NCBI GenBank assembly: GCA_964632395.1
Contig: CAZWES010000004.1
Location: 120 to 64,119 of the forward strand
Direction: 5' to 3'
Length of the DNA: 64,000 nt
Source: an uncultured Candidatus Peribacteria bacterium
GTDB lineage: Bacteria; Patescibacteriota; Gracilibacteria; Peribacterales; Peribacteraceae
Under the pieces are notes generated by a model. The model was not told where the DNA came from. It did no database searches and worked only from the letters and a program-made list of their open reading frames with translations. Positions 5,439 to 64,000 of this stretch are shown here, piece by piece. The stretch's first letter is position 1; each line of letters starts with the position of its first letter. The position numbers and the translations under genes were made by a program.

Positions 5439-8400
5439 GCAATTGGTGAAAAGTCCATTGCAGTGATTTTAGTCCAAATTGCTTTAATAATCTCCTTCAA
5501 TTCTTTCACTTCCTCTTCTTTTATTTCCATATCAATCACCCTCCGTCCCTCTTTTTGAGTTCCAACAAAATCGAGTGTGAACTTTGTCGCAGTATGTGTG
5601 AAACTTGGCGAAAGATCGCAAAGCAGTTTGTAGAAGACGAGTTGGCGGAAGAGATCCTCCGATTTTCTGACAGCATTTTCTGTTTTCTTTGGCATTCCGG
5701 TTTTGTAGTCAATAACTCTGCAGTTTTGGCCTTCCGGTGAAAATAGGTCGATGCGGTCAACTTTTCCGTAAAGCGGGATATCATCTAATCTTGCAGTTAT
5801 TGAGCGTTCCGCGGAGAGGATTATCGGGTGTTCATCTGAGGTTTCCGAGGCATAGCGCATTAGGACTTCTTTTCCTGCATGAAGGTAATGCTCGCGTTCT
5901 TTTTCTGTGAAGACTTCCCGCTCGGTCATCGTCTTCTCAAATGTGTTGATGAGTTCGTCCACTTCAAATTCTTCACCAGCCTGCCATGCGAGATTTCGTT
6001 TCTCGAGCGCTGCATGCACCACAGTTCCGTAAGAAAGATGTGCGGCTTTGGCTTGTGGTTGCGAAAGGAGGTGAAGCCACAGAAATTCCTGCGGATCGCG
6101 AAGATATGCATTTAGAGCCGTCACAGACATGCGGAACTCCTCCAGTCGTTCTTTGAGGAATGCGCGGAATGCTTCATCAATTTCTATTCCTGGCATGTGT
6201 AATGTCTCAACCGGTGCGGGCACATCACTTGCAGGGATTTTTTGTTCGCTGAGTTTATCACCGGCTTCTGCGATGAAACTTGAAGGTTGTGCGTCCTGCA
6301 ACTTTTCCCCGGATCTGTATGTTTCCGGGAATGTGAGTATCAAGTGGCGTTTTGCGCGGGTCATTGCCACGTACATCAACCTCCTTTCATCTTCCTGCTT
6401 TGCACGCTTCTCAACTTTTTTATCAATTCCAAAAATCAAATGATCCGGGAGCGACATCATCTTCCCGCGCATCCTGTTACCCCAGTTCTTGTGTCTTGTG
6501 TGTGCAATTATCACGAGTTCAAATTCCAATCCTTTAGCTCCGTGAGCGGTCATCAGCTGAACTCCGTCCGTCACAATGTGCGGGACGGCATACTCAAGCT
6601 TCAAATGTTTTTCTGTCAAATACTGATCAAGGTCAGATAAAAGTTCCGGGAGTTTGAGTGCTTTGTTCTCATAAACTCTGTCTTTCACATAATCATAAAA
6701 TGCATGCAGTCCCGCGATGACACGTGGGTCAGCTTCCGTATCATCTTTTGCTGGTAAAAGTTTTGAGTCTTTGAGTAAAGTCTCCATGAGTTCCGGGAGA
6801 GTCACGGAATCCTTTTTTGCATGGAGCGCCTCGATCAAGTCGTATGCATTTTTTATAGAGGAGGGGAGTTCTTCGTGATTTGCCAATAGATACTCGCGGA
6901 GCGAGAGGCGCTCTTCCCGTCTTACTCTCCTGAATGCGCACCACAGCCTTCCAAGTTCTGCTGGATGGCATCCAAGTGTTGTGCAGCTGAGTGCAGCACT
7001 CAGAGCAGCATTATCGTTGATGTGTTCGATTGATTTTAAAATAATGATTGCCTGACGAACTTCGCGGTGCATCATCAAATTTTGTTTTGCTGCAAGTACT
7101 ACGGGGATGCCGGCTGCATGGAGTGCATCATGCATTTCCGCGAGCTCCTCATTCCTTCTGCAAAGCACTGCCATCTCGTTCCATTCGGTTCCATTTTCAT
7201 TTGCATCCTTCAAAATCTGTGCGATGCCTGCACGCTCGTTTTCGATTGCGGGGAATCTCAGGAAGATCGGAATTCGGAATCCGGATTCCGAATTCCGAAA
7301 ACTTTTTTGATCAATATTCGATTCCAGTCGCTTGTTTACACTATCTAACCTCTCCTCATTATTTTCTATGACATCCGCCGCGGCATCCAGAATCTCCTGA
7401 GTTGAGCGATAGTTCGCAGTCAATGTGATGATCTCCAGTTCCGGAAAGCGCTTGAGGAAGCGCATCATATTTTGTGGAGAAGCACCCTGGAAGCGGTAGA
7501 TCGCCTGATCGTCGTCACCGACTACAAAGATGTTTGGGTCTTCATCTTCAATCGGATTTTTTGTGAGCGTATCAATCACATCGTACTGCGAGCCGTTTAA
7601 ATCCTGGAATTCATCCACAAGAACGTATTGGTATTTTTCCTGAAGTGAAGCAAGTAACCAGTCATGTTTCACCAAAGCTTTGTGGCAAACAAGAACCATA
7701 TCTTCATAGTCATAACGGTGGCTCTCCTTCAAAGCTTCCTCATATCCACGGTAAAGTGTGATGAATTCTTCAAGCTGTTTAACGAGTCTCAAGTCATCCT
7801 TATACGCCTGAGTTTCTTTGTTTCTTGCTTTTCCGGCTTCCGTCAATTCTATCTCCGCTTTGAATTCTGGAATGATCTTTTCAAGATCTTCAGTTGAAAT
7901 ACCTTCTCGTTTCATCTCACTGATGCGGTTCAAAATTGCAGAGGCGCGATCGTTTTCAAGTGAAGGTCTTCCGAGGATTGATCCGGGCTTGAGCTCTGAC
8001 ATTCCTTTCCTCACGATGCGAAGTCTCTCAATCTCACTAACCTGCTCAAGTGCACGGAAATCCTCAAAAAGATGTGGGTGCTCCAGAATTATCTGGTTGC
8101 AAAAGCTGTGGACGGTTTCAATTGTGATGCCGTACGCATCAGGTCCAATAATCTCACGCAACCTCTCACGCATTGCTTTTGCTCCGCTCGTGGAAAAGGT
8201 CAAACACAAGATGTTGTATGGGCGCATCTGGGTCCTTGCCAAAATGTTTGCAGCCCGCATTGCGAGGGTCTGTGTTTTCCCCGTTCCTGGTCCTGCAACC
8301 ACCATCACCGGCCCCTCGATTGAGTCGACTGCTTTCTTTTGATTGGGGTTAAGTCTTGCATATTCTTTTAGGAACTCGGGCGTCATTTTTGGCTTCAATT

Positions 8401-8443
8401 GCGGCTTTTTATGCTCTGTGATGGGTTCGGTGGTTTGGGGCAT
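5435..8443 (-). CDS. UvrD/PcrA-family ATP-dependent DNA helicase with C-terminal PD-(D/E)xK (RecB/AddB-like) nuclease domain
   Basis: LNPNQKKAV, Walker A AGPGTGKT, DEFQDLN and VGDDDQAIYRFQGA motifs. C-terminal VDRIDL...VIDYKTG nuclease motif. The ORF is open to 8557, but its first 38 codons run antisense through a tRNA-like sequence, so the start is placed at Met 8443 (alternative 8386). Confidence 0.85.
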   Translation of the reverse strand: MPQTTEPITEHKKPQLKPKMTPEFLKEYARLNPNQKKAVDSIEGPVMVVAGPGTGKTQTLAMRAANILARTQMRPYNILCLTFSTSGAKAMRERLREIIGPDAYGITIETVHSFCNQIILEHPHLFEDFRALEQVSEIERLRIVRKGMSELKPGSILGRPSLENDRASAILNRISEMKREGISTEDLEKIIPEFKAEIELTEAGKARNKETQAYKDDLRLVKQLEEFITLYRGYEEALKESHRYDYEDMVLVCHKALVKHDWLLASLQEKYQYVLVDEFQDLNGSQYDVIDTLTKNPIEDEDPNIFVVGDDDQAIYRFQGASPQNMMRFLKRFPELEIITLTANYRSTQEILDAAADVIENNEERLDSVNKRLESNIDQKSFRNSESGFRIPIFLRFPAIENERAGIAQILKDANENGTEWNEMAVLCRRNEELAEMHDALHAAGIPVVLAAKQNLMMHREVRQAIIILKSIEHINDNAALSAALSCTTLGCHPAELGRLWCAFRRVRREERLSLREYLLANHEELPSSIKNAYDLIEALHAKKDSVTLPELMETLLKDSKLLPAKDDTEADPRVIAGLHAFYDYVKDRVYENKALKLPELLSDLDQYLTEKHLKLEYAVPHIVTDGVQLMTAHGAKGLEFELVIIAHTRHKNWGNRMRGKMMSLPDHLIFGIDKKVEKRAKQEDERRLMYVAMTRAKRHLILTFPETYRSGEKLQDAQPSSFIAEAGDKLSEQKIPASDVPAPVETLHMPGIEIDEAFRAFLKERLEEFRMSVTALNAYLRDPQEFLWLHLLSQPQAKAAHLSYGTVVHAALEKRNLAWQAGEEFEVDELINTFEKTMTEREVFTEKEREHYLHAGKEVLMRYASETSDEHPIILSAERSITARLDDIPLYGKVDRIDLFSPEGQNCRVIDYKTGMPKKTENAVRKSEDLFRQLVFYKLLCDLSPSFTHTATKFTLDFVGTQKEGRRVIDMEIKEEEVKELKEIIKAIWTKITAMDFSPIA

Positions 8444-8543
8444 TGGTGGGGGTAGTGTAGCGCATGGTGGCGCGAGCGGTCTCTCACGAGCCTCCATCCT
8501 GGTTACGGTTACGCGCGGTTCGAATCCCGTCGGCGCCATTTTC

Positions 8544-8615
8544 TCCCCGTAGCTCAATTGGTAGAGCGCCGATCTCCAAGTCGGTGGTTGTCGGTTCGAG
8601 ACCGGCCGGGGAGCT
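8544..8615 (+). tRNA. trnW: tRNA-Trp (anticodon CCA) with an anticodon arm one nucleotide short
   Basis: Acceptor CTCCCCG/CGGGGAG. D arm GCTC-AATTGGTA-GAGC. T arm GTCGG-TTCGAGA-CCGGC. Anticodon region CCGAT-CTCCAA-GTCGG. Close to E. coli tRNA-Trp in layout. No encoded CCA. Confidence 0.75.
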
Positions 8616-10047: not shown

Positions 10048-10099
10048 GTGAGGAGAGTATAAGGGAAAATTGAGGGAGGGGAAGGGACTTCCTTAAGGA

Positions 10100-10200
10100 A
10101 ATTCCAAGCACCAAATTCCAAAAGAATTCCAAATCTCAAATAACAAAGCCTTTTGAGATTTGGAATTTGAGATTCTTTTGGTGCTTGGAATTTGGTGCTT
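10100..10200. repeat. About 100-nt imperfect palindrome (family E), downstream of dnaG
   Basis: Arms AAGCACCAAATTCCAAAAGAATTCCAAATCTCAAA / TTTGAGATTTGGAATTTGAGATTCTTTTGGTGCTT. A second copy lies at 17628-17725. Confidence 0.8.
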
Positions 10201-12002: not shown

Positions 12003-12587
12003 TTATAGTTTGCACAATTGACCTACGATGTGAGCAGCAGTTTTCCTTACAGTAAACCCAACTTTTCTCTCATCAGTTAGAACCTCATCTTTGATGTTAA
12101 TGTCGTGTATATCTTCAAGATCCATAAAGAACTCCAATAAATCGTGAGAATCGTAGCCAATCAGATCTTTGCAGCTACTTCCCCAATTCACTTTTTCAGG
12201 CTCTGTGCCAGCAATGTTTTGTAGAACTACCCGAATTGTTTGAAATATGTCATCCAGAACGGCCTTTTTAACTCCAGGACTATTATTGTGTGAGATCATT
12301 AAAAATTTTCTTGCAAGGGCCTGTACTTCCTGACGACTCATATCTGATTTATCTGCAATGTCGGATGCAATTTCGGGGTTCTTGATAAGAGCGATTGCCA
12401 CAACAACTGTTTCTTCGTTGCAATAAGGTTCAGGTGCTAGTTGTGCAAACTTGCACATCTTTTGTTCTAGGAGCTGTGGTTTAATCGATTGTATAAGTTC
12501 TTCAGTACTTCTTTCGATTGGCCTTTTGTCTGCACTCTGTAGTTCTGTTTCTTGCATGATGGTTTGGTGGTAAGAAATGGATAACAT
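12003..12587 (-). CDS. Hypothetical protein with C-terminal acyl-carrier-protein-like (PP-binding-like) domain
   Basis: KDLIGYDSHDLLEFFMDLEDIHDINIKDE parallels the ACP segment [27 protein letters not shown]. Its ATG shares one nt with the leuS TAA (TAATG). Confidence 0.5.
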   Translation of the reverse strand: MLSISYHQTIMQETELQSADKRPIERSTEELIQSIKPQLLEQKMCKFAQLAPEPYCNEETVVVAIALIKNPEIASDIADKSDMSRQEVQALARKFLMISHNNSPGVKKAVLDDIFQTIRVVLQNIAGTEPEKVNWGSSCKDLIGYDSHDLLEFFMDLEDIHDINIKDEVLTDERKVGFTVRKTAAHIVGQLCKL

Positions 12588-15499
12588 TAGACAACAAGAC
12601 TCACCAACTTTCCAGCAACATACACCTCTTTTTTCACGGTTTTTCCGGAAATGTACTTCTGCACGTTCTCGTGAGCTTTTGCCTGCGAAATTGCCTCTTC
12701 TTCGGAAATATCGGCCGGAACCTCCAAATTTGCACGAACTTTGCCGTTTACCTGCACAACCAGTGTGAAGGTGTTGGAGATTAGCTTGGATTCATCATAA
12801 GTTGGCCAGTCGGATTCGATTACGAAGCCTTTGGAACCCGTGAGCTCCCACATTTCCTCGGCGAGGTGGGGGGCGAGGGGGGCGAGAAGTTTGGTAAAAG
12901 TAATTGCAGTTTCTTTTATAACTGATCCTGCTTTTTCCATCTCGTTCAAAAGAATCATCAGTGCGCTGATTGCGGTGTTGAAGTTGAATGTAGAAATATC
13001 ATCAGTTACTTTTTTGATTGTTTGATGGAGCAGGGGAGTCACGGATGATGAATCCTCTTTGGCTGATATTTTTTGTGAATCAGAGAAGTAGGAGTAGATG
13101 CGTTTTACAAAGCGGTCCATGCCTTTTATTCCGCTATCGTTCCAGTCGCCGCCGTGCATGAATGGTCCCATGAACATCAGGTACATCCGGAAAACATCTG
13201 ATCCGTATTTCTCTACAAAGTCATCAGGAGAAACCACATTCCCGCGCTTGCTCATTTTTGAACCCTTGTGCGTTATGAGCCCCTGATGGACCAGGCGCTG
13301 GAATGGTTCCTCTGCTTTTATGTGTCCAAGATCTTTAAGGACCATCGTTACAAAACGTGCGTATATCAGGTGCATGCAGGCGTGCTCGGGACCCCCGATG
13401 TAGAGATCAACAGGCATCCACTTCTTTTCAATACCTTTTGGAATAAATTCTTTTTGGCTGCCTTCCGAGAGAAATCGGAATTGATAGAAGCTGCTGCAGA
13501 CGAATGTGTCCATTGTGTCCACTTCCGGCCGCCAACCCTTTCCGAATATTTTTTCCGTGCGTTCAACAAATTCTTTCGATTGCGCGAGTGGAGATTTTCC
13601 TTTTGGCTTAAATTCAACGTCGGTTGGAAGTTTCCAGGGCAGATGTTTTTCCGGGATCGGATGAGGATTTCCTTCCGGGTCATAGACAATTGGGATAGGT
13701 GCTCCCCAGTAGCGTTGTCGGGAGATGAGCCAATCACGCAGGCGATAAGTTGTTACTCGTTTGCCCCATCCTTTTTCCACAAAGTAATCCATAATTTTTT
13801 CTTTGGCATCCATGATTTCCATGCCATCCAGAAAATCTGAATTTGTCATGGTTCCGGCTTCTTCCTGAACCTGTTCGATGCGTGTGATATCGGAGGTGTC
13901 TCCATCGGGTCCAATCACCACACGAACGACTGGAAGATCGAAAGTTGTTGCGAACTCGAAATCACGCACGTCGTGGCCTGGCACTCCCACAACTGCACCT
14001 GTTCCAAATCCTGCGAGGACAAAGTCGGAAACCCAAATAGGCATTTTCTCCCCATTTAGATTATTGATCGCATAATGCCCGGTAAAAACACCTGTCTTCT
14101 TTTTGCCTTCCTCCTGCCTCTCAAGTTCAGTCTTGTTCATAGACTTTTTGATGTAATCATCAACTTCCTTGTTGTTTCTGGAAACCATACGGGCAAAAGG
14201 ATGTTCAGGTGCTAGGACAACAAAAGTGGCGCCAAAATTGGTATCAGGCCGCGTTGTGAAAGTTGTTATAGTTATCGGTAATTTCGACAGAATTCGCCCA
14301 TTTTCCTCAACATTGCCATTCTTTGGGTTTTGTTGGATGTAATTTAAAACTGATTCAAATTGTTCCAGGTTTGTTACTTCTTCGAAGTGGTTGCCTTTAG
14401 CCCAAACAGGTCCTTGCCTGTCGTACTGTTCGTTGAAATCGTGGGCGCTGCCTCCTTTTAGCTTCCTGACAATATCCTTTTCCAAGTGCCTCCCTTTTTC
14501 AAACGAAATAAGCAAATGAAGGTGTTCCAGCATTGCACATGCCTCATGAAGAATTATGTTATGCCTTTTTGCAACTGCACCGATAATTCTAAGCATAGAA
14601 GATGCGATTTGTGATTTGGAAAACAAATTTTCTCTGTTCTTTGGTTCTATGGTTATGTGAACAGTACGCTTAGTGGGCTGAAGCCCGGTTGATTTCGTAT
14701 CGTTAACCCCGCCCTTAAGGGCGGGGTTAACGCAACTATCGTTATCGGGCTTTAGCCCTTCATCCCAACCTATAACTCCGCGCTTAATACCTTCAATCTC
14801 ATAAATAATATCGATTCCGCGCTTTTTTCCAATCCAGTTTTTCTGCATCAGTTTAGTCTTTTCCGGCCATTCAATTTTTTCAAGGCCTTCAAGCAACTGA
14901 TCGGAATATTTTGTGATCTTCCAATACCACTGTGTTAACGGCTTTTGTACCACTTCGTTATCACACCGCTCACATATTCCATCCCAAACCTGCTCGTTTG
15001 CAAGAACCGTTTGGCAATCCGGGCAAAAGTTCACATTTCCCTCTGAGCGGTATGCAAGATTGGAATTGTACATCTGCAAAAATAGCCACTGTGTCCAGCG
15101 GTAGTATTCGGACTCGGATGTGTTCAGTGTTTTGCTCCAGTCGTATGTGCATCCCATTCGTTTGTATTGCTTAACCATATACTCAACATTTTCCTGAGTC
15201 GAATCGTGCGGGTGCATTTTTTTCTTAATTGCATTGTTCTCCGCGGGCAAACCGAACGCATCAAATCCTATTGGGTGGAGCACGTCCTTCCCGCACATTT
15301 TCATAAAGCGGCTGAACGAATCCGGAGTGGAATACTGGAACCAGTGCCCAACGTGCAGGCGGGATCCGCTTGGGTATGGAAACATAACCAGGCAGTAATA
15401 GGGATTCTTCGCTTTCTTAAGATCAACCTTGTACACACCGGATTCTTCCCAGCGTTTTTGCCATTTGGATTCGATGGTGGAGGGGTCGTAGGTGGGCAT
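12587..15499 (-). CDS. leuS: Leucyl-tRNA synthetase carrying an in-frame insertion of about 165 aa (HUH/Y1 transposase-like domain)
   Basis: PYPSGSRLHVGHW (HIGH), TTRPDTNFGATFVVLAPEHP (CP1 editing domain), GSKMSKRGN (KMSKS) and a C-terminal anticodon-binding region. Uninterrupted 970-aa ORF. Confidence 0.93.
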   Translation of the reverse strand: MPTYDPSTIESKWQKRWEESGVYKVDLKKAKNPYYCLVMFPYPSGSRLHVGHWFQYSTPDSFSRFMKMCGKDVLHPIGFDAFGLPAENNAIKKKMHPHDSTQENVEYMVKQYKRMGCTYDWSKTLNTSESEYYRWTQWLFLQMYNSNLAYRSEGNVNFCPDCQTVLANEQVWDGICERCDNEVVQKPLTQWYWKITKYSDQLLEGLEKIEWPEKTKLMQKNWIGKKRGIDIIYEIEGIKRGVIGWDEGLKPDNDSCVNPALKGGVNDTKSTGLQPTKRTVHITIEPKNRENLFSKSQIASSMLRIIGAVAKRHNIILHEACAMLEHLHLLISFEKGRHLEKDIVRKLKGGSAHDFNEQYDRQGPVWAKGNHFEEVTNLEQFESVLNYIQQNPKNGNVEENGRILSKLPITITTFTTRPDTNFGATFVVLAPEHPFARMVSRNNKEVDDYIKKSMNKTELERQEEGKKKTGVFTGHYAINNLNGEKMPIWVSDFVLAGFGTGAVVGVPGHDVRDFEFATTFDLPVVRVVIGPDGDTSDITRIEQVQEEAGTMTNSDFLDGMEIMDAKEKIMDYFVEKGWGKRVTTYRLRDWLISRQRYWGAPIPIVYDPEGNPHPIPEKHLPWKLPTDVEFKPKGKSPLAQSKEFVERTEKIFGKGWRPEVDTMDTFVCSSFYQFRFLSEGSQKEFIPKGIEKKWMPVDLYIGGPEHACMHLIYARFVTMVLKDLGHIKAEEPFQRLVHQGLITHKGSKMSKRGNVVSPDDFVEKYGSDVFRMYLMFMGPFMHGGDWNDSGIKGMDRFVKRIYSYFSDSQKISAKEDSSSVTPLLHQTIKKVTDDISTFNFNTAISALMILLNEMEKAGSVIKETAITFTKLLAPLAPHLAEEMWELTGSKGFVIESDWPTYDESKLISNTFTLVVQVNGKVRANLEVPADISEEEAISQAKAHENVQKYISGKTVKKEVYVAGKLVSLVV
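14280..14790 (-). mobile_element. In-frame RAYT / IS200-IS605 TnpA-like (HUH Y1 transposase) domain plus REP-like hairpin module embedded in leuS
   Basis: The translation VHITIEPKNRENLF...ILHEACAMLEHLHLLIS...VWAKGNHFEEV...LNYIQQNPKNG has the HUH motif (HLH, 14516-14524) and the catalytic-Tyr motif Y-I-x-x-N-P (Tyr codon 14339-14341). It lies between the LeuRS segments IEGIKRG and ITTFTTRPDT. Confidence 0.75.
14675..14758. repeat. 84-nt three-hairpin module 1, inside the leuS coding sequence
   Basis: GGGCTGAAGCCC, 15 nt, the perfect 30-nt palindrome GTTAACCCCGCCCTTAAGGGCGGGGTTAAC (14702-14731), 15 nt, GGGCTTTAGCCC. An adjacent half-site TAACTCCGCGCTTAA lies at 14772-14786. Confidence 0.9.
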
Positions 15500-15523
15500 G
15501 ATAAATGTTGAGGTGAGTATAAC

Positions 15524-15607
15524 GGGCTAAAGCCCGTATTTAAAAAGCACGTTAACTCCGCGCTTAAGCGCGGAGTTAACGTAACTGTCGTTGTTGGGCT
15601 TTAGCCC
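15524..15607. repeat. 84-nt three-hairpin module 2, 25 nt upstream of the leuS start codon
   Basis: GGGCTAAAGCCC, 15 nt, the perfect 30-nt palindrome GTTAACTCCGCGCTTAAGCGCGGAGTTAAC (15551-15580), 15 nt, GGGCTTTAGCCC. Same spacing as module 1. Followed by the hairpin CCAGCGGAAT-tt-ATTCCGCTGG (15611-15632). Confidence 0.9.
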
Positions 15608-15829
15608 GCGCCCAGCGGAATTTATTCCGCTGGGAGAGGAAAAAGAAGTGGATTCCCGGTAAGGGGTGGATGGATCAGGATTCATTCCACTGGGGTTAGA
15701 AAAAGTGGAATGATCTCCTTTGGGAGTGAAGGGAGAAGGCGGTAAAGGGCCTGAGTTTGGGAAAGATGGATGCGCCACAAGAAACATTATAAGTTTGACA
15801 AAACCAAATAAGCAAGTAAAGTGTACATC

Positions 15830-16173: not shown

Positions 16174-17625
16174 ATGGCTCCACACATGCCCAAACTCCCC
16201 ACCGTCGCCATTGTCGGCCGCCCGAACACAGGAAAATCCACGCTATTCAACCGCCTCATCGGATCGCGTCGTGCAATCGTCAGCGATATTCCGGGAACAA
16301 CGCGTGACCCCGTCGTCCAAAGAGTCGAAGGCGAAGAGGTTGATTATTTGTTGATGGACACAGGTGGAATGGGTGGCGGCACACGCGATCAGGATTTTGA
16401 AGATGATGTTGCGTCGCAATCACTCATTGCGCTTGAACATGCGGATCTCATACTCTTCCTTGTCAACAGTCGTGAGGAACTTACCTCATCTGATTTTGAA
16501 GTTGTGGATGCACTGCGAAAAAAACGCAAGCGTCACGTTTCTGTTTTTCTTGTGATAACAAAGTGTGATGATCTGCAAAAAATGGAAGAGGCGCTGCCTA
16601 AGTTTTTTGAGCTCGGAATTTCCGATGATGTTTTTGCTGTGAGTGCGGCTCATAGGCTTGGGATGGATGAATTGGAGGAAGCGGTTGAGGAGAGACTTTT
16701 GGAAATGCATTTTGGGGAGGATTGCTCTTTTCGAGCGAGCATCACAGACGCGCCTCTCGACTCGTCGCTATCAGCTAACGCTTCGAGCTCCTCGCTCGAG
16801 GAGAGCGTCTGTGATGCGAGTCGAGAAACAATTCCAAAGGTTGCAATAGTCGGAAGACCGAATGTCGGGAAGAGCTCACTCATCAATGCGTTGATGCCGG
16901 AGCCGCAGAGGAAGGTTCAATCGAGATTGACGAGTGATGTGCCGGGGACAACGCGTGATACGACGGATACGGTGCTCAGATCACATGGTCAGGAATTTCT
17001 TTTTTTGGATACGGCGGGTTTGAAGCGTCGTAAAAATGTCAGAGAAGATGTTGAGGTGTATGCGATCATCAGAACACTGCAGGCGATTGAGGATGCAGAT
17101 GTCACCGTCCTCGTGCTTGATGCTACAGAGGAGATTGGGAGGCAGGATAAACGCATTGCATCGCTTGCGATTGCGCGTGGGAGCGGATTGGTTCTGCTTG
17201 TGAACAAAACTGATCTTCTTTCGGAGGGAGAAAAGCAGGCGTTTCAACGTCAAGTGGATATCAATTTCCCGTTCTGCAAATGGGCTCCGGTTCTTTATAC
17301 ATCAGCCGTAACTCGTGAGAATCTACCAAAGCTCTTTGATTTGATATTGGTCATCGCGGGAAATCGTGCACAGCGAGTGGAGACTGCTGCATTGAATAGA
17401 TGGTTTCGTGATCTCGTAGCAGCTTCGCAACCGAAAGGAGTTGGTGGCCTGAGTGTGAAAGCAAAATACATCACGCAGGCGGATGTTTGCCCGCCGACAT
17501 TCGTGTTGTTTTTGAATGATCCGAAGCGACTTCATTTTTCCTCGATCAGATTTTTTGAGAATAAAATGCGGGAGACTTTTTCACTGGAGGGGACGCCTGT
17601 CAGATGGGTTAAAAAATCGAACTAA
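16174..17625 (+). CDS. der: Ribosome-associated GTPase Der/EngA
   Basis: Two tandem GTPase domains (GRPNTGKST...DTGG; GRPNVGKSS...DTAG...NKTD) and a KH-like C-terminus. The inter-domain linker contains a palindromic insert. Confidence 0.92.
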   Translation: MAPHMPKLPTVAIVGRPNTGKSTLFNRLIGSRRAIVSDIPGTTRDPVVQRVEGEEVDYLLMDTGGMGGGTRDQDFEDDVASQSLIALEHADLILFLVNSREELTSSDFEVVDALRKKRKRHVSVFLVITKCDDLQKMEEALPKFFELGISDDVFAVSAAHRLGMDELEEAVEERLLEMHFGEDCSFRASITDAPLDSSLSANASSSSLEESVCDASRETIPKVAIVGRPNVGKSSLINALMPEPQRKVQSRLTSDVPGTTRDTTDTVLRSHGQEFLFLDTAGLKRRKNVREDVEVYAIIRTLQAIEDADVTVLVLDATEEIGRQDKRIASLAIARGSGLVLLVNKTDLLSEGEKQAFQRQVDINFPFCKWAPVLYTSAVTRENLPKLFDLILVIAGNRAQRVETAALNRWFRDLVAASQPKGVGGLSVKAKYITQADVCPPTFVLFLNDPKRLHFSSIRFFENKMRETFSLEGTPVRWVKKSN

Positions 17626-17627
17626 AC

Positions 17628-19587: not shown

Positions 19588-20167
19588 ACGTCATGCTGAG
19601 TGGATCCCCCAATTTAAGAAGGGGGCACCAGTTTGGTTGTTTGATGTTATTCATATGATACGATTCTACTCCTTTGCCCCCCTCTTAAATTGGGGAGAGA
19701 CGTATCGAAGCACACTTTTTAACTAAATAATATGACAAAGCGCACATTCACCGTTTATATGCTCCGTTGCTCTGATGGCAGCTACTACACAGGAATGACC
19801 AGCAATCTTGAGAATCGGCTTCAGGAGCATGACAGTGGAAAGTTTCCTGATTCATATACTCATGAACTAAGGCCTGTTGATTTAGTATTTTCCCATACAT
19901 TTGATAATACGTATGACGCAATTTTATGGGAGAGAAAAATAAAAGGATGGAGCAAAAAGAAAAAAGAAGCTCTTATTAAAGAAGATTGGGAAGCTATTCA
20001 GAAACTTTCCAAGAAGAGGAATTTTAAACGTAAACGGTGAATGTGCTTCGATACGTCTCTCCTAGCCGGTATGGAGGGGCATAAATCATGACCAGACGAT
20101 ATTTAAAAAAATGCAAACTCAAACTGGAGCCCCTCCATACCGGCTAGGGATCCACTCAGCATGACGT
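19588..20167. mobile_element. 580-bp nested inverted-repeat cassette carrying a GIY-YIG nuclease gene
   Basis: Outer 20-bp IR ACGTCATGCTGAGTGGATCC (19588-19607) / GGATCCACTCAGCATGACGT (20148-20167). Inner perfect 20-bp IR GGAGAGACGTATCGAAGCAC (19694-19713) / GTGCTTCGATACGTCTCTCC (20043-20062). One long hairpin sits between the outer and inner IR on each side. Confidence 0.7.
19732..20040 (+). CDS. GIY-YIG nuclease family protein (small, UPF0213/YhbQ-like)
   Basis: FTVYMLRCSDGSYYTGMTSNLENRLQEH and WERKIKGWS give the GIY...YIG, Arg and Glu elements of the GIY-YIG fold. Basic C-terminal tail. Confidence 0.85.
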   Translation: MTKRTFTVYMLRCSDGSYYTGMTSNLENRLQEHDSGKFPDSYTHELRPVDLVFSHTFDNTYDAILWERKIKGWSKKKKEALIKEDWEAIQKLSKKRNFKRKR

Positions 20168-22754: not shown

Positions 22755-23789
22755 CTAGAAAGACGGTGGCTGCGAAATTAAGGATTTATAAATATTTGCC
22801 GTCTCCTCCGCCATCCTCTCCCACGAAAATCCCTTCGCATGTTCCATAGCTTTCTCGCGATCAGGTGGAGATGAAAGCGCTTGTTTGATGCCATTTGATA
22901 CTCCTTCCACGGTTGGCTGCACAAGAATTGCATTGCCTCCTGCAATCTCCGGGATGCTTGTTCTGTTTGATGCAACCACTGGGCAGCCGCATGCCATTGC
23001 CTCCAGGATTGGCAGGCCGAAGCCTTCATATAGCGAAGGTAGTATGAAGCAGGAGGCGGCGGAATAGATTGTGGGGAGATCTGCATCATCAACATTTCCG
23101 CCTGTGACCAACACCAACTCCCAACCTTCTGGGCATGCATCAACCAACGTCTGAACATTCTTATGCTCCTTGCATGCACCTACATACAAAAGGAATTGCT
23201 CCAGCAGCTGATATTTTTCACGGACTCTTTTGATATCTTCATCCGATCTCGGATAAAAATCCTCTGAGACTCCTTCGTAAATCACGCTCATTTTTGATCG
23301 GACATCTTCACCATATGTTTTTGCAATATCATCAGCGGTCGAATTACTCACTGTGATGATGTGTTTCGATTTCCTGATGGCATGTTTCATCAGCATTTTG
23401 TATGCAATCCGTTTTGGCAGCGTTGCTTGATTCGGATAATGATGGAGGATCAAATCATGGATTGTTGTGATGAACAGAACGGGACACTTCAGTGGGACGT
23501 TGAAGTGGGGAACGTGGAGCAGATCAATTTTGGATTTTCGGATAATTTTTGGAAATTCGATTTGTTCGCGCAGCGAATAATGGCTGATTGATAATGGATA
23601 ATGGATAATTCGGTCACCTTGAGTGGAGTCGAGTCCGTGATTTGCATTTTTTGGTAGGAAGAGGACGTAGTTCCAGGGGTCATCGCGTTTTGTGAGGTTT
23701 AGGACGAGTTCGCGTGTGTAGCGGCCGATGCCGGAGCGGGTTCCTGCAAAGCGACAGTCGATGCCGATGGTGTATCCTTTATCGGTCAT
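22755..23789 (-). CDS. Glycosyltransferase family 1 (GT4-type)
   Basis: EGFGLPILEAMACGCPVVAS motif. The N-terminus MTDKGYTIGIDCRF is typical. The start is placed at Met 23789; the ORF is open to 23915. Confidence 0.85.
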   Translation of the reverse strand: MTDKGYTIGIDCRFAGTRSGIGRYTRELVLNLTKRDDPWNYVLFLPKNANHGLDSTQGDRIIHYPLSISHYSLREQIEFPKIIRKSKIDLLHVPHFNVPLKCPVLFITTIHDLILHHYPNQATLPKRIAYKMLMKHAIRKSKHIITVSNSTADDIAKTYGEDVRSKMSVIYEGVSEDFYPRSDEDIKRVREKYQLLEQFLLYVGACKEHKNVQTLVDACPEGWELVLVTGGNVDDADLPTIYSAASCFILPSLYEGFGLPILEAMACGCPVVASNRTSIPEIAGGNAILVQPTVEGVSNGIKQALSSPPDREKAMEHAKGFSWERMAEETANIYKSLISQPPSF

Positions 23790-34339: not shown

Positions 34340-36061
34340 ATGAAAATCGGCGAAGTTATTAAAACTTTATACGGCGTGAATACAGATGTTGCTCTGGTTG
34401 CGCCGGCGGACGCCTCTCATGGTGACCTTACGACTAATGTTTGTATGCAGGTGAGTAAAAAAGTAGGTAAGAGCCCGGAGGAGATCTCGGAGGGTGTAAT
34501 AAGTGCTATTAAAGGTGAGGAAGTAGTTGATTCAGTAGTTTTTGCGAAGCCTGGCTTCATTAACATCACATTGACCGGGGAAGCGAGGATGAAATTGGTG
34601 CAGGAATCGTGGGGGGCGTGTAAGGCGCAGGAGAAGAGGGATGAGGCACCGGTGATCGTGGAGTACTCACATCCAAATATTGCGAAGCCACTTGGCGTTC
34701 ATCACATCCTGAGTACTGTAATCGGGCAGGCGATTACCAATTTGTACCGCCATCAGGGTTATTCAGTTGTAAGTTGGAATTATGTTGGAGATTGGGGGAC
34801 ACAGTTTGGAAAATTGGCGGTGGCGTTGGAAAAATGGGGTAAGAAAGGCAAAAAGGCATCAGATTACACTCTTCAGGAGCTTTTGGATCTGTATGTTAAA
34901 TTCCATGAAGAAGCGGAAAAAGATAAGTCACTGGAGGAAGAAGGGCGTGCGGCATTCCGTCGCCTGGAAGAAGGTGATGAGGATATCCGTGCGTTTTGGA
35001 AGGATGTAGTTGATATCAGCCTAAAGGGTTTGGATGAGCTATATGATCGTCTGCACGTTTCATTTGATGTTACAAAGGGGGAAAGCCCGTACGAGGACGC
35101 AATGCCCGAAATCATCAAGGAAGGGAAAAAGAAGGGGGTTTTTGTGGATGGTGAAGACGGGGCGCTGATCGTAGAGTTTGATGATGAGAGTCTTCCTGTT
35201 TATATGATCGTAAAATCTGATGGGGGTACGCTGTACTCAACTCGTGATCTCGCTTTGGCACTCGATCGAAAGAAATCTTACAAGCCACAGGCAGTGCATC
35301 ACGTTGTGGACGTTGCGCAGCAAACTTACTTCCGTCAACTATTTGCAACAATGGATAAGTTGGGGTGGGAGATGGACCACGAAAACCATGTCGTGTACGG
35401 GCGTATGAGCTTTGCTGAAAAAGGAATGAGTACACGAAAAGGGAACATCCTCAAGCTTGAAGATGCATTGGATGAAGCTGTGAAGCGCGCGGAGAAATTA
35501 ATTGAGGAGAAGGAATCTGAGGTCAAAGGCTCAGAGCGAGACGATCTTGCAGAGATGATGGGTGTGAGCTCATTCGTCTACACAATCCTGAGTCAAAACA
35601 GGAAGCACAACATTGTCTTCACATGGGATAAAGCGCTTACGTTTGAGGGAAACAGCGCACCCTATCTTCAATATACTCATGCGAGGGCTCGCTCAGTTCT
35701 TAGAAAGGCTGAATCGCAGAAAATTATCAATTTACAAGTGTCAATTTTCAAACAATTTTCAATTTTCAAGGATCAAAAGTTGTCTGAGGTAGAGCTCGAA
35801 GAAAAAGAGTTAATTTTGATGCGTCGTCTGATCCTATTCTCAGAAGTTCTTGAGGACGCAAGGCGGGATGCAATGCCACATAAACTCACAAACTATCTCT
35901 ATTCCCTTTGCCAGGATTACAACACGTTTTACAACGCACTCCCAATTCTAGATTCCAAAGATCCCGTTCGCTCGCTTCGGTTGGCTTTAACGGGCATCAC
36001 TTCCGACATCTTAAAAACCGGTGCCGAGATTCTTACTCTCCGCGTGCCGGATCGCATGTAA
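34340..36061 (+). CDS. argS: Arginyl-tRNA synthetase
   Basis: Class I HIGH-like region YSHPNIAKPLGVHHI. YSTRDLA motif. C-terminal DALR anticodon-binding domain (LTNYLYSLCQDYNTFY...). The ORF is open from TTG 34322. Confidence 0.9.
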   Translation: MKIGEVIKTLYGVNTDVALVAPADASHGDLTTNVCMQVSKKVGKSPEEISEGVISAIKGEEVVDSVVFAKPGFINITLTGEARMKLVQESWGACKAQEKRDEAPVIVEYSHPNIAKPLGVHHILSTVIGQAITNLYRHQGYSVVSWNYVGDWGTQFGKLAVALEKWGKKGKKASDYTLQELLDLYVKFHEEAEKDKSLEEEGRAAFRRLEEGDEDIRAFWKDVVDISLKGLDELYDRLHVSFDVTKGESPYEDAMPEIIKEGKKKGVFVDGEDGALIVEFDDESLPVYMIVKSDGGTLYSTRDLALALDRKKSYKPQAVHHVVDVAQQTYFRQLFATMDKLGWEMDHENHVVYGRMSFAEKGMSTRKGNILKLEDALDEAVKRAEKLIEEKESEVKGSERDDLAEMMGVSSFVYTILSQNRKHNIVFTWDKALTFEGNSAPYLQYTHARARSVLRKAESQKIINLQVSIFKQFSIFKDQKLSEVELEEKELILMRRLILFSEVLEDARRDAMPHKLTNYLYSLCQDYNTFYNALPILDSKDPVRSLRLALTGITSDILKTGAEILTLRVPDRM

Positions 36062-57198: not shown

Positions 57199-57247
57199 TG
57201 GCGCGGACGTATCCGTTTCCACAAGTCGTGCCCGTTATCGTTTCCTC

Positions 57248-57325: not shown

Positions 57326-57380
57326 GAAAAAATGTAACGGGCGCGGCCTGGACTCAGCAATTTGATGTATCCTTTACGCT

Positions 57381-58761: not shown

Positions 58762-60645
58762 ATGCAAATCCGCAACTTTTGCATCATCGCGCACGTTGAT
58801 CATGGCAAATCCACTCTGGCGGATCGGTTGCTTGAGCTTACGGGAACAGTTGAATCGCGGGATATGAAGGAGCAGATACTCGATACCATGGATCTGGAGC
58901 GCGAGCGCGGCATCACGATCAAGCTGCAGCCGGTTAGGATGATGTATGAAGTGTCATCCCTCGATACGCGCCTCGATACGCCTCGCTCCGCTCGGCTACT
59001 CGGCGCTACTCGGGATGACACGGCTTATCAACTCAATCTGATAGATACCCCCGGACACACAGACTTCAGATATGAAGTCAGTCGATCACTCGCAGCGGTT
59101 GAGGGTGCAATTCTGCTCATAGATGCTTCGCAGGGAGTGCAGGCGCAGACTCTCGCAACTCTTCATTCCGCAATGGAGCATGACCTCAAGATCATTCCTG
59201 TTTTGAATAAGATTGATCTGCCTGCAGCGGATGTTCCGCGAGTCATGCGTGAGGTTACAAAATTGCTTGGGTGTTCTGAGGATGAAGTGCTTTCGATTTC
59301 TGCAAAGGATGGGACAGGGGTGGAGGGGGTGTTGGAGGCGGTCGTTTCAAAAATACCGGGACCGTCAGATTCTTCCAAGTCCTCGACCAGAGCTCTAATC
59401 TTCGATGCCAATGCAGATCCCTATCGCGGTGTGGTTGCTTATGTTCGAGTGATGGAAGGTGAGTTCAAAAGAGGGGATGCTGCGCATCTACTTGGCTCCA
59501 AAAAGCAGATTACGATTTCGGAAGTCGGGATGTTTACACCCGATTACGAAGCAACCGATACTCTTTCTGCGGGTGAGATTGGGTACATAATCACAGGACT
59601 AAAAGACGTTTCCGAGGCTAGAGTCGGTGACACGTTCGCGTCATCTCCAGGTCTTGATCCGCTTCCAGGTTACAGAGTGATCGAACCAATGGTTTTTGCA
59701 GGGCTTTATCCAACAAATCCTGATGATTTGCCCAAACTTCGTGAAGCGCTTGAGAAACTTCAGTTGAACGATGCATCTTTAACGGTTGAGCCTGAGCAAA
59801 ACACTGCACTCGGGAATGGCTTCCGTTGCGGGTTTTTGGGATTGCTTCACCTGGATATTGTGCAGGAACGGCTTGAGCGTGAGGAGGGTTGCAGCCTAAT
59901 CGTTACAGCGCCAAGCGTGACTTATGAAGTTGTGCTTCAGTCCAAAAGCCCTGCATCGGTCGTGCGATCAAGTCTATTAAAACCTGATGAGAAGAGTGTT
60001 GCCCTGATCAGCAACCCCGCAGACTTTCCGGATAGAACTCACATCAAGGCGGTGCGTGAGCCTTGGGTCAAATTGGAAATCGTCTGCCCAAGTGAAAGCG
60101 TTGGTGCGATTATGCAGATGGTGCAGGAGCGGCGCGGCACTTACGAGTCATTGGAATACCTGGAGGAGGGGACTTCCTTAATCCATTTTGAGGTTCCGCT
60201 TTCGGGCATTGTCCATGACTTTTTCGATCGTCTTAAATCCATAACTTCCGGCTACGGCTCCATGAGCTACGAACTACTCGAGTTCCGGGAAGGTGATCTC
60301 ATCAAAATTGATATGCTGCTAATCGGCGAATCTGTGGATGCCTTGAGCACCATAGTTCATAAATCAGAAGCGCATACCGTGGGTGCAAAGATTTGTAGGA
60401 AGTTGAAGGAAGTCATTCCGCGCCAGCAGTATCAAGTCCCGATTCAGGCTGCGATCGGCGGCAAGATAATAGCGCGTGAAACATTGTCAGCGCTGCGCAA
60501 AGATGTAACGGCTAAGCTTTATGGGGGGGATAGGACGAGGAAGGATAAGCTTTTGAAAAAGCAGAAGAAGGGTAAAGATAGGCTAAAAGCTGTGGGGAAG
60601 ATTGTGTTGCCACAGGAGGCGTTTCTTTCAGTTCTGGAGAGGTGA
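58762..60645 (+). CDS. lepA: Elongation factor 4 (LepA) with a palindromic in-frame insert in the G domain
   Basis: AHVDHGKST, DTPGH, NKIDL, and the C-terminal LepA-specific region ...RKDVTAKLYGGDRTRKDKLLKKQKKGK. Confidence 0.95.
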   Translation: MQIRNFCIIAHVDHGKSTLADRLLELTGTVESRDMKEQILDTMDLERERGITIKLQPVRMMYEVSSLDTRLDTPRSARLLGATRDDTAYQLNLIDTPGHTDFRYEVSRSLAAVEGAILLIDASQGVQAQTLATLHSAMEHDLKIIPVLNKIDLPAADVPRVMREVTKLLGCSEDEVLSISAKDGTGVEGVLEAVVSKIPGPSDSSKSSTRALIFDANADPYRGVVAYVRVMEGEFKRGDAAHLLGSKKQITISEVGMFTPDYEATDTLSAGEIGYIITGLKDVSEARVGDTFASSPGLDPLPGYRVIEPMVFAGLYPTNPDDLPKLREALEKLQLNDASLTVEPEQNTALGNGFRCGFLGLLHLDIVQERLEREEGCSLIVTAPSVTYEVVLQSKSPASVVRSSLLKPDEKSVALISNPADFPDRTHIKAVREPWVKLEIVCPSESVGAIMQMVQERRGTYESLEYLEEGTSLIHFEVPLSGIVHDFFDRLKSITSGYGSMSYELLEFREGDLIKIDMLLIGESVDALSTIVHKSEAHTVGAKICRKLKEVIPRQQYQVPIQAAIGGKIIARETLSALRKDVTAKLYGGDRTRKDKLLKKQKKGKDRLKAVGKIVLPQEAFLSVLER

Positions 60646-61954: not shown

Positions 61955-61956
61955 GC

Positions 61957-62126
61957 GTGTCATGCTGAGCGTAGCGCAAGCATCCGATAAGGATGCGAAG
62001 CGCGGAGACGAAGCATATACTCGTGGATGCTTCGTCTCCGCCCTCCGCTACGCTCCGGGCTCCGCTCAGCATGACACGGCCAGTCCGCAGACGAAGCATT
62101 AATTCGGACTCCGCTCAGCATGACAC
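61957..62126. repeat. GTCATGCTGAGCG-family compound palindromic repeat
   Basis: GTGTCATGCTGAGCGTAGCG (61957-61976) ... CGCTACGCTCCGGGCTCCGCTCAGCATGACAC (62047-62077). Inner 14-bp IR CGGAGACGAAGCAT / ATGCTTCGTCTCCG (62003-62040). A second terminus CTCCGCTCAGCATGACAC lies at 62109-62126. Confidence 0.88.
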
Positions 62127-63400: not shown

Positions 63401-64000
63401 AAGAAGCAATCATCGCCGGGCTGGATGAAGCGGGAAGGGGGTGCCTTGCGGGGCCTGTTGTTGCGGGGGCGTGTGTTGTGGAGGTGGAAACGTGTCGTCC
63501 TTCGTCTCCGTGGCAGCTGTGTCATGCTGAGCGGAGCCCGGAGCGTAGCGGAGGGCGGAGACGAAGCACGACCAGCTGCCGCTCCGCTCAGGATGACACG
63601 TTTCCCATTATCACAGACTCAAAAAAGATGACTGAAGAGCAGCGAAACTCATCCTTCATCTTCATCAAAAAGAATTTTCCATGTGGAATTGGAGTTGCAC
63701 CTGCTTCTTACGTTGATGAGCACGGCATTCTTGGAGCCACGGAGCTTGCGATGCATCAGGCGTTATTTGAGCTTGAAAAAATTATCAAACCAACTTACTT
63801 GCTGATAGATGGCCGGGATCACTTTTGGTTTGATGTTCCTCATTCCTCAATAATCCGTGGTGACGAGAAGGAGCTTTGCATCGCGGCAGCCTCTATCCTT
63901 GCTAAAGTCACACGTGACAGGCTTATGGTGGAGTATGACATGGAATATCCAGGATATGGCTTTGCAGAGCATAAAGGGTATGGGACGGATTTTCATCGAA
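63397..64000 (+). CDS. rnhB: Ribonuclease HII (3' end beyond window) with in-frame palindromic repeat insertion
   Basis: Own translation from ATG 63397 (ATGA overlap with the murE stop): GLDEAGRGCLAGPVVAGA, DSKKMTEEQR, IAAASILAKVTRD, YGFAEHKGYGT. This ORF is not in the supplied track because it runs off the window. Confidence 0.88.
   Translation, partial: MKEAIIAGLDEAGRGCLAGPVVAGACVVEVETCRPSSPWQLCHAERSPERSGGRRRSTTSCRSAQDDTFPIITDSKKMTEEQRNSSFIFIKKNFPCGIGVAPASYVDEHGILGATELAMHQALFELEKIIKPTYLLIDGRDHFWFDVPHSSIIRGDEKELCIAAASILAKVTRDRLMVEYDMEYPGYGFAEHKGYGTDFHR

Follow-up and report, generated by a model that had tools for sequence, protein, structure and literature searches.

How do hairpin-forming repeats come to lie in frame inside intact bacterial genes, and are enzymes that might move them encoded nearby? 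The question is raised by a 64,000-nucleotide (nt; 64-kb) stretch of contig CAZWES010000004.1 from an uncultured Candidatus Peribacteria bacterium (GCA_964632395.1), hereafter the window. An earlier reading made from the letters of the DNA alone (the sequence-only reading) had proposed that seven housekeeping genes of the window tolerate such repeats, and that a Y1/HUH domain inside leuS and a GIY-YIG nuclease may mobilise them. The most valuable result of our analysis is that the leucyl-tRNA synthetase (LeuRS) carries a module of Y1 domain plus palindrome, together with the link found between the GIY-YIG gene and a repeat family. We lean, if only somewhat, towards the explanation that several unrelated palindromic families, similar to repetitive extragenic palindromic (REP) sequences or miniature inverted-repeat transposable elements (MITEs), colonised this genome, two of them with candidate partner enzymes, the LeuRS Y1 domain and the UPF0213 GIY-YIG protein. 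Positions refer to the window, L and P codes denote the loci and proteins of relatives used for comparison, and the features are collected in Table 1.

An alignment with the LeuRS of T. thermophilus (1H3N) left residues 239-408 of the window protein unmatched, and the spacing from NWIGK to FTTRPD was 188 amino acids (aa), as compared with 19 aa in the empty Peregrinibacteria alleles L139 and L140. Flanked by ...EG(xx) and (x)T(I/V)T(C/T)FTTRPD, the insert is located 5-6 residues ahead of the T-rich motif of the editing site; a hypervariable segment makes up its first part and a 133-aa domain the second. This domain matched Pfam Y1_Tnp (E 7e-14). Its best NCBIfam match was REP_Tyr_transpos (NF047646), at 52.3 bits under the cut-off of 80, with IS200 at 43 bits, and a sequence search of the PDB gave matches too weak to use (E 0.1-0.3). 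An AlphaFold model from 26 sequences (a predicted structure, with a mean confidence, pLDDT, of 95.8) was compared with the PDB by Foldseek, and the top 30 matches were exclusively IS200/IS605 TnpA proteins and 4ER8, the E. coli REP-associated tyrosine transposase (RAYT) bound to a REP hairpin. The closest were IS200/IS605 TnpA structures (E 8e-9, template-modelling score, TM, 0.70), and the root-mean-square deviation from 4ER8 was 2.8 Å (E 6e-8). Across the 26 sequences, the His of the HUH motif was invariant and the Tyr of the YIxxNP motif nearly so.

The insert was carried by 24 of 121 aligned LeuRS sequences (the window's own and its 120 best matches), all at the identical position, and one of these proteins has been named 'leucyl-tRNA synthetase/REP element-mobilizing transposase RayT' by JGI. 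When the insert columns were removed, a neighbour-joining tree placed the 24 scattered among insert-free sisters. The Y1 domain is nearly as conserved as its host (mean identity of 54% vs 64%), several reciprocal nearest neighbours agree between host LeuRS and Y1, and the domain occurs once in the window and once per examined locus. Stand-alone relatives of the domain (167-236 aa, 37-49% identical) turned up when 1.84 billion representative proteins were searched exhaustively; the ends of these proteins include peptides that hairpins of the same kinds encode, e.g. RGLKPA and AGFNPH.AGFIP. Besides its LeuRS-Y1 gene, locus L138 has a separate, canonical stand-alone Y1 transposase gene (2309-2818) with an in-frame perfect 30-nt palindrome at 2590-2619. 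The leuS insert was also considered as an intein; this was rejected, as there was no intein or Hint match in Pfam and splicing motifs are absent from its start (...EGIK/RGV) and its end (...GRILSKLP/ITIT).

The sequence-only reading had tied the Y1/HUH domain to a repeat, and the domain indeed directly adjoins the leuS palindrome in eight genomes. The 84-nt element of the window encodes ...GLKP...VNPALKGGVN...GLQP; only one of its six frames is open, and it is the one in use, while in the copy of the element in the der-leuS spacer none of six is open. Self-BLAST aligned leuS 14701-14758 with spacer positions 15550-15607 at 86% identity (E 5e-11), and GGGCTNNAGCCC had 4 matches in the window vs 0.06 expected. 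The AAGCGCGGAGTTA at the left edge of the insert resembles half of the intergenic palindrome and may be a half-copy of it. In all eight LeuRS-Y1 genes for which DNA was available, the hypervariable segment contained one or two perfect zero-loop palindromes of 30-40 nt, of the common form GTTA(A/G)C-N7-TTAA-N7'-G(T/C)TAAC. The N7 stems vary between genomes by compensatory changes, and the palindromes are read in different frames (VNPALKGGVN, TLTGDLNRRLT, VSPRINSGAN); therefore, the constraint acts on the DNA and not on the peptide. No such palindrome was found in two insert-free loci, and the LeuRS-Y1 genes (3 kb) have almost no palindromes besides those in the insert. The palindrome of L134 and that of L135 start right at the left junction; the minimal insert is therefore palindrome plus Y1 (146 aa). 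When each site was folded as single-stranded DNA and scored against shuffles, the left segment of the insert gave z-scores of -4 to -7 in seven of the eight genes.

Copies of the palindrome are dispersed in relatives. A pattern scan of metagenome contigs found 51 copies on 49 contigs, nearly all with the exact 30-mer of the window leuS; most are flanked by matching GGGCTAAAGCCC / GGGCTTTAGCCC mini-hairpins, some subfamilies having variant ones, and 47 of the 51 lie outside open reading frames (ORFs) of at least 150 aa. Over ~85 nt, such copies in other genomes are 82-91% identical to the leuS element, and their contigs match the window at the repeat only. At the protein level, at least two of the 49 contigs are syntenic with the window (52-91% identity) and therefore stem from related organisms. 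The sample that yielded the LeuRS-Y1 gene P0005 also yielded 17 of the 49. L138 has three copies in 23 kb, two in leuS and one intergenic (11094, 11210 and 15951), all with identical 17-nt arms; the intergenic one (15951-15990) has the arms of the leuS palindrome with a different centre. One Y1 enzyme with a lineage-specific dispersed hairpin is the signature of RAYT/REP systems, but here the enzyme is embedded in an essential protein and the hairpin is one-sided. In the window the der-leuS spacer itself (15500-16173) extends over 675 nt, as compared with 25-110 nt in seven relatives, and accommodates the second GTTAAC element along with more hairpins; one of these, 15611-15634 (CCCAGCGGAATTTATTCCGCTGGG), is also found upstream of leuS in L137. 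An ORF in this region, 15527-15952, was rejected as a real gene; it had no Pfam or NCBIfam match and is made of repeat-coded peptides.

One possible explanation for these data is that the leuS insert is a self-contained, selfish and one-ended IS200-like unit (hairpin plus tnpA), which homes to a single leuS site and is capable of precise excision, resembling an intein that stays unspliced, with the dispersed elements as decayed or non-autonomous offshoots in whose upkeep it takes no active part. This would fit the patchy distribution among insert-free sisters, the same insertion point in 24 of 24 proteins, the minimal insert, the weak congruence of host and Y1, and the precise excision and site-specific insertion for which IS200/IS605 TnpA is known. 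We nevertheless consider it unlikely, as the left junction has no conserved nucleotide target motif and a right-end hairpin is absent, the agreement of some nearest neighbours suggests partly vertical descent, and the dispersed copies are so nearly identical that something must have recently amplified or homogenised them. It appears to us improbable that the Y1 domain is instead an exapted LeuRS module without DNA mobility (e.g. for nucleic-acid binding or enzyme regulation), the palindrome a regulatory mRNA or DNA hairpin for leuS, and the other coding hairpins unrelated accidents. The domain does evolve at roughly the host rate, is kept in many lineages beside the editing domain, and is accompanied in the leuS leader by the second element copy and another conserved hairpin. 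However, most close LeuRS relatives manage without it, a purely structural role would not require invariant HUH and Tyr residues, and the same palindrome stands at ~50 unrelated intergenic places in relatives.

The explanation we favour, with partner enzymes for two families, also has to account for the GIY-YIG gene. The order within its unit is outer inverted repeat ACGTCATGCTGAGTGGATC, hairpin (19607-19695), inner inverted repeat GAGACGTATCGAAGCACA, ORF, inner repeat, hairpin (20061-20148) and outer repeat. A profile search with the ORF (19732-20040) retrieved UPF0213 structures from the PDB (1ZG2, E 1e-17; 1YWL, E 5e-15). In the gene-less unit at the window edge (1-192), the inner repeats pair with each other as a hairpin whose loop is 8 nt long. 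The Peregrinibacteria contig L049 encodes a 54%-identical homologue in an identical architecture, and in L043 the outer repeats flank the gene. The sequence-only reading had correctly connected this gene with repeats, as it is bracketed by terminal repeats that also bound the rnhB insert and intergenic elements, but had described it as cassette-borne. An integron cassette with attC sites was rejected because the flanks are mirror-image copies and the inner repeats form a hairpin when the gene is absent; the gene lies within a nested inverted-repeat unit, not an integron-type cassette.

UPF0213 GIY-YIG loci number at least 502, in many phyla (one genome per species), and 80 of these were retrieved. 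The gene stands between exact inverted repeats of 9 nt or more in 63 of the retrieved loci, and the recurrent flank consensus GTCACCCTGAGC(C/T)TGTCGAAGGGTG equals the outer and inner repeats of the window joined. Since the bracketed loci are spread over many phyla, the association of gene and repeat is old and widespread. Hairpins of 85-91 nt stand between the outer and inner repeats in the window (19607-19695, 20061-20148 and 82-172) and in L049 (reverse strand, ~7650-7566 and ~7180-6940). Per copy, 17-20 of 21 stem positions pair, while only 5-10 of 21 bases are common between copies and the loops (~45 nt) show no relationship. What is kept is thus the place, size and structure of the hairpins, not their sequence; in other phyla these hairpins are absent and the two repeats are contiguous.

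The same repeat family extends into coding sequence. The GTCATGCTGAGCGGA motif had 10 matches in the window vs 1.7 expected, and eight good copies of the family-B repeat (Table 1) were found. The rnhB insert belongs to this GIY-YIG-associated family: its terminal repeats of 15-19 nt are shared with seven other sites, and self-BLAST aligned positions 63519-63568 at 100% identity (E 3e-20) with 62028-62077 in reverse complement, in the element 1.4 kb upstream. The lepA insert has ends related to family B, and a relative of it is located at L018 1096-1155, between a family-B repeat and an inner GIY-type repeat. It is absent from a 90%-identical allele (P0273/L143), where the DNA shows a clean 69-nt gap, and present in a 92%-identical LepA. 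LepA has hot spots at which 12 of 120 and 18 of 120 orthologues carry unrelated inserts. In the Peregrinibacteria LepA proteins (P0271-P0390), these follow core positions 62-64 and 180-184 and hold inserts of 6-34 aa. The window insert lies at ~aa 64-87, at a site where 12 other LepA proteins also carry inserts, and a second segment of ~16 aa (~aa 395-410) is absent from T. thermophilus EF4. In P0276, the N-terminal extension CHAERSE...PEPVEG is translated repeat sequence.

Table 1. Repeat-related features of the 64-kb window and the repeat families to which sites were assigned (IR, inverted repeat).
Feature	Position	Strand	Remarks
leuS (LeuRS, 970 aa)	12587..15499	-	Pfam; intact, HIGH-type HVGH, KMSKR, editing TTRPD; ~169-aa in-frame insert
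Y1/HUH (RAYT-/IS200-like) transposase domain	14276..14674	-	LeuRS aa 276-408; HUH motif EHLHLL, Tyr motif NYIQQNP
84-nt composite hairpin in leuS	14675..14758	-	layout GGGCTGAAGCCC, 15 nt, palindrome, 15 nt, GGGCTTTAGCCC
Perfect palindrome at centre of leuS element	14701-14732	-	CGTTAACCCCGCCCTTAAGGGCGGGGTTAACG
Left edge of leuS insert	14759..14782	-	encodes KRGVIGWDE, contains AAGCGCGGAGTTA
Second 84-nt element copy, der-leuS spacer	15523..15608	.	central perfect palindrome 15549-15582 (ACGTTAACTCCGCGCTTAAGCGCGGAGTTAACGT)
GIY-YIG unit	19588..20167	+	~580 nt, mirror-symmetric nested IRs
UPF0213 GIY-YIG gene	19732-20040	+	102 aa; Pfam GIY-YIG E 3e-16
Gene-less GIY-YIG unit, clipped by window edge	1..192	.	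inner IRs 36-77, hairpin 82-172, outer IR 174-188
Intergenic element upstream of Mur ligase gene	61956..62126	.	GTGTCATGCTGAGCG IRs bound 61956-62078; solo repeat 62105-62126
rnhB in-frame insert	63486..63605	+	~36-40 aa; core 63519-63599 (81 nt) bounded by GTGTCATGCTGAGCGG / CCGCTCAGGATGACAC IRs
lepA in-frame insert	58946..59021	+	10-nt IRs GTGTCATCCC / GGGATGACAC; net gain 19-23 aa
der in-frame insert	16714..16818	+	~29 aa, linker between two GTPase domains
Helicase palindrome	7267..7298	-	perfect 32 nt, TCGGAATTCGGAATCC / GGATTCCGAATTCCGA; UvrD/PD-(D/E)XK helicase; adds 7-8 aa
argS heptamer tract	35714..35781	+	AT-rich TTTTCAA/TTATCAA, no hairpin; one arm of 128-nt intergenic palindrome 39431-39558
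GT4 heptamer tract	23576..23615	-	TGATAAT-type, no hairpin; relatives at 31596-31635, 42535-42588
Family A	leuS 14675-14758; der-leuS spacer 15523-15608		84-nt 'GTTAAC' composite element
Family B	rnhB insert; 61956-62126; GIY-YIG unit ends 19588-20167; gene-less unit 1-192		GTGTCATGCTGAGCGG inverted-repeat elements
Family C	four intergenic sites		93-nt palindromes
Families D, E	include argS and GT4 sites		AT-rich heptamer palindromes and tracts
Family F	helicase, der		singletons

The claim that seven genes (helicase, leuS, der, GT4, argS, lepA and rnhB) stay in frame across hairpins held for the frames, which are intact in 7 of 7. Pfam supports the names UvrD/PD-(D/E)XK helicase, LeuRS, Der, GT4, ArgRS and LepA; rnhB, which runs off the window end, is RNase HII as judged from PDB matches and the complete 225-aa gene on the parent contig, the JGI metagenome contig Ga0118720_1000409 of 70,346 nt. 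The best protein matches were to Candidatus Peregrinibacteria/Peribacteraceae. The z-scores were -7.6 for leuS, -4.7 for the helicase, -4.5 for rnhB, -4.0 for der and -2.0 for lepA, where 7 of 200 shuffles folded equally well. These five inserts are hairpins beyond chance and are missing in orthologues, and the in-frame tolerance likened to that of Rickettsia palindromic elements (RPEs) is real for them. Neither the argS site (z -1.2) nor the GT4 site (z +0.6) is a hairpin; both are AT-rich heptamer tracts. Self-BLAST of the window, used to seek intergenic relatives of coding inserts, confirmed those predicted for leuS, GT4, argS and rnhB (four of four). The pattern thus exists, though it takes in several different things: the seven sites are not members of one family, and at least five unrelated families are involved. 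Alleles with and without the insert were compared as suggested, and empty ones exist for leuS (L139, L140), lepA (P0273), der (seven of seven relatives) and the helicase (three relatives).

The presumed enrichment of repeats was evident in perfect stems of at least 12 bp with loops up to 100 nt: the window has 22 vs 0.27 expected, an ~80-fold excess (100 first-order Markov simulations, maximum 2). This length was chosen because trivial 5+5 palindromes dominate at 10 nt, where 88 inverted repeats were observed vs 72 expected. Verified genes hold 3 of the 22 stems although ~90% of the window is coding; therefore, the repeats are mainly intergenic and the coding copies are a tolerated minority. 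At the gathering score, Rfam 15 matched two tRNAs only in the whole window, and a search of 19400-20400, around the GIY-YIG unit, gave no meaningful match at E up to 10; the hairpins of the window therefore belong to no described RNA family.

The remaining four sites differ in kind. The der hairpin (16739-16817) has 13 perfect and 22 imperfect base pairs. At the helicase, a tRNA-like sequence (8543-8614; Rfam tRNA, 51.5 bits; no anticodon assigned by ARAGORN) overlaps the called 5' end, so that the gene probably starts farther downstream. The argS tract (35714-35781) is 85% identical to 39496-39563 (E 3e-13), and the extra segment it encodes is only ~11 aa as compared with E. coli. In GT4, whose N-terminal half is not alignable to PDB structures, positions 23585-23610 are 96% identical to 31598-31623 (E 1e-4, low complexity). 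Such sites invite the explanation that the coding inserts are local palindromes or low-complexity expansions that arose in rapidly evolving loops of Candidate Phyla Radiation (CPR) proteins through template switching or replication slippage, and that mutational bias makes them resemble intergenic repeats. The tandem heptamers that make up the helicase palindrome as well as the tracts in GT4 and argS, the lack of relatives of the der and helicase inserts, and the many unrelated inserts at the LepA hot spots point this way. As a general account we find it distinctly improbable, because the rnhB insert matches an intergenic element perfectly over 50 nt and has its 15-19-nt terminal repeats at seven other sites, the leuS element recurs at 82-91% identity over ~85 nt in other genomes, and the lepA insert has a relative in L018.

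The contig is metagenomic and repeats are a classic cause of mis-assembly, so that repeats might have been spliced into genes by an assembly or binning artefact. This possibility is largely refuted and now close to negligible. In a second sample, an 11.4-kb contig spans the lepA and rnhB inserts at 100% identity, so that these are not an artefact of one assembly; the 92%-identical LepA with the same insert comes from another source, the LeuRS-Y1 architecture is present in 24 independent assemblies, and every frame stays open.

According to the explanation we favour, most repeat copies would have settled in the ~10% of the window that is intergenic, and a few would have landed in surface loops or linkers of essential proteins. 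The coding copies would persist if the net change is a multiple of three, stop-free and at a permissive site, a filter which would be that proposed for RPEs. LepA, with unrelated inserts at its two hot spots, illustrates such filtering across the whole lineage. The 84-nt GTTAAC element around its perfect 30-nt palindrome would be the cognate hairpin of the LeuRS Y1 domain, one copy of it forming the left end of the leuS insert. The domain may bind the hairpin as single-stranded DNA and cut and rejoin beside it, like IS200/IS605 TnpA and RAYTs; such activity would disperse hairpin copies, and precise excision or re-insertion of the hairpin-plus-Y1 unit would give the patchy presence among LeuRS genes. 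Location in the essential leuS may keep the domain expressed and shielded from loss. To the 'GTCATGCTGAGCGG' family belong the rnhB insert and the element that precedes the Mur ligase gene, probably along with the lepA insert; it has its terminal repeats in common with the ~580-nt unit, in which the UPF0213 gene occupies the loop of a nested palindrome. The UPF0213 nuclease may cut palindromic units, which would then acquire a copy of the gene or of the repeats during repair, much as in homing. The data show the anatomy of the elements, their families, the empty alleles, the Y1 fold, the conserved motifs, the compensatory changes and the dispersal in relatives; catalysis, the pairing of each enzyme with its repeat and present activity are what we infer here. 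A stronger version, which we hold only tentatively and think doubtful, would have LeuRS host a working RAYT-type transposase with its own hairpin, seeding palindromes genome-wide and leaving and entering leuS seamlessly, and UPF0213 nucleases mobilise GTCAYCCTGAGC...TCGAAGG-type repeats across phyla.

Several points weigh against this explanation. Mobility of the repeats is deduced, and no transposition, excision or cleavage has been observed. The sequence-only reading had spoken of active systems, which goes too far: the sole signs of recency are the 50-nt identity of rnhB to the element 1.4 kb upstream and the empty alleles in close relatives. Distances of Y1 and host are weakly but significantly correlated (r 0.21, Mantel p 0.005), and with a crude, star-like tree, multiple losses and horizontal spread are therefore inseparable. 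Canonical RAYT loci have REPs on both sides and IS200/IS605 elements have hairpins at both ends, whereas the right junction is unstructured (z about 0) in eight of eight LeuRS-Y1 genes, leaving a hairpin on one side only; moreover, REP and IS200 hairpins are not typically perfect palindromes with a zero loop. The window contains two GTTAAC copies in 64 kb, both less than 1 kb from Y1, and dispersal farther afield in this organism is presumed. It is other organisms that carry the dispersed copies, and what links these to a LeuRS-Y1 is co-occurrence in samples. The UPF0213 protein has 102 aa and no DNA-binding extension, and we know of no UPF0213 member proven to be a transposase or homing enzyme. 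No direct target-site duplication was visible at the four element ends inspected. For the inserts in the helicase and der, neither the window nor any of the retrieved loci offers a relative, and there is no candidate enzyme; the GT4 and argS tracts may have originated by slippage instead of mobility.

Further repeats were noted in the window and its parent contig. A 93-nt G+C-rich palindrome with a GCTCTGCGT...ACGCAGAGC core stands at 22646-22738, 26473-26565, 48892-48984 and 57240-57332; all four copies are intergenic and mutually 87-97% identical, with no associated enzyme evident. Long AT-rich hairpins occupy intergenic gaps at 10099-10195, 17624-17720, 39431-39558 and 49757-49813, and their arms are tandem 6-7-mers (AAATTCC, TTTTCAA, GGATAG); the helicase palindrome (TCGGAAT twice) is built alike. 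A 135-nt direct repeat, 96% identical (40884-41018 and 41422-41556), brackets a small ORF (41086-41415), and its first copy is the 3' end of ORF 39585-41018. Past the window end (L141 16100-17660), a tRNA gene is followed by ~1.4 kb without gene calls, coding-like on the reverse strand. This stretch is flanked by an inverted 80-nt pair (~16222-16301 and 17698-17777) that is 98.75% identical and ~1.4 kb apart.

So far known chiefly from Rickettsia, in-frame palindromic repeats also occur in this CPR lineage, whose genomes are equally small; this suggests that they are a general outcome of repeat invasion in gene-dense genomes, and extra loops in CPR proteins may be due to mobile DNA rather than to adaptation. 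Repeat-coded peptides (CHAERS..., PEPVEG, GLKP, VNPALKGGVN) inflate gene calls, as in LepA P0276. How single-copy RAYTs are maintained is an acknowledged puzzle (PMC5581495). The RAYT-like domain nested in LeuRS with its obligatory hairpin is a natural experiment on this maintenance, since genomes with and without it exist, among them LeuRS matches on contigs of 0.3 to 1.4 Mb (P0012, P0007 and P0024 with the insert, P0118, P0049, P0030 and P0090 lacking it). If the stronger version of the favoured explanation is true, this would be the first transposase hosted in an aminoacyl-tRNA synthetase and would answer how single-copy RAYTs escape loss, and UPF0213 GIY-YIG proteins would be the long-missing mobilisers of very widespread palindromic repeats. 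The link across phyla is in any case a testable lead for the protein family and the repeats alike.

Among known systems, RPEs (Ogata et al. 2000, cited after a review, PMC3184786) are repeats found in intergenic DNA and in frame in conserved genes. The window resembles them in its small palindromes, both intergenic and in frame in intact genes, in the short peptides added at tolerated sites, and in the presence of several families in one small genome; the leuS and rnhB palindromic families each hold both intergenic and in-frame copies. It differs in its host, a CPR Peregrinibacteria and not an alphaproteobacterium, so that the link is one of analogy and not of sequence membership. Two of the seven sites are not palindromic, and two families adjoin a candidate enzyme; we know of no mobilising enzyme identified for RPEs.

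In comparison with RAYT/REP(IN) systems (PMC5581495, PMC3337134, 4ER8), LeuRS-Y1 has the Y1 HUH fold and motifs, is apparently single-copy, and adjoins a G+C-rich palindrome that is also extragenic, lineage-specific in sequence and co-varying with the enzyme. Unlike a RAYT, it is an in-frame LeuRS domain and not a stand-alone gene, its one-sided hairpin lies within coding sequence, its NCBIfam score is under the family cut-off, and it is patchy among close relatives. REPs carry a GTAG or CGTC tag beside the stem (PMC3733652), whereas the leuS stems start with GTTAAC or GTTAGC, have no such tag, and form a perfect zero-loop 30-40-mer. IS200/IS605 elements (ISDra2 2XM3, IS608 2VJV) offer the closest structures, and their hairpin-guided, single-stranded 'peel and paste' with seamless excision would explain the empty and occupied leuS alleles. 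LeuRS-Y1 differs from them in that it lacks a right-end hairpin, TnpB, multiple copies and a recognisable target tetranucleotide, and in that it is translated within its host protein.

The GIY-YIG unit has the catalytic domain of UPF0213/YhbQ proteins (1ZG2, 1YWL) and GIY-YIG homing endonucleases, and its free-standing, repeat-bracketed gene with gene-less copies nearby is what would be seen for a homing-type selfish gene. Unlike I-TevI-type homing endonucleases, the 102-aa protein has no DNA-binding domain and is not in an intron, and the Peregrinibacteria units differ from other UPF0213 loci in their extra hairpins with variable stems. To our knowledge, UPF0213 GIY-YIG proteins, though common, have no assigned function. 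MITEs and other repeats fused in frame to genes include the Correia, BOX/RUP/SPRITE and cyanobacterial elements (PMC3184786). The repeats of the window resemble MITEs in their terminal inverted repeats of 15-19 nt, size of 81-121 nt, lack of own coding capacity and occasional in-frame ORF fusion, and differ from them in that no target-site duplication was seen at the ends of four copies and no DDE transposase is encoded in the window.

A literature search found no description of a LeuRS-embedded RAYT-like domain or of the GIY-YIG/repeat link, an absence that is no proof of novelty; a RAYT-like transposase domain that is built in frame into an essential synthetase together with its own hairpin appears to be new to the literature. 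We regard LeuRS-Y1 as a variant that probably works like a RAYT or IS200 transposase and not as a member of either group, since it lacks several of their defining features and keeps the fold, the motifs and the hairpin association. The in-frame behaviour of the repeats is a fresh instance of the phenomenon known from Rickettsia.

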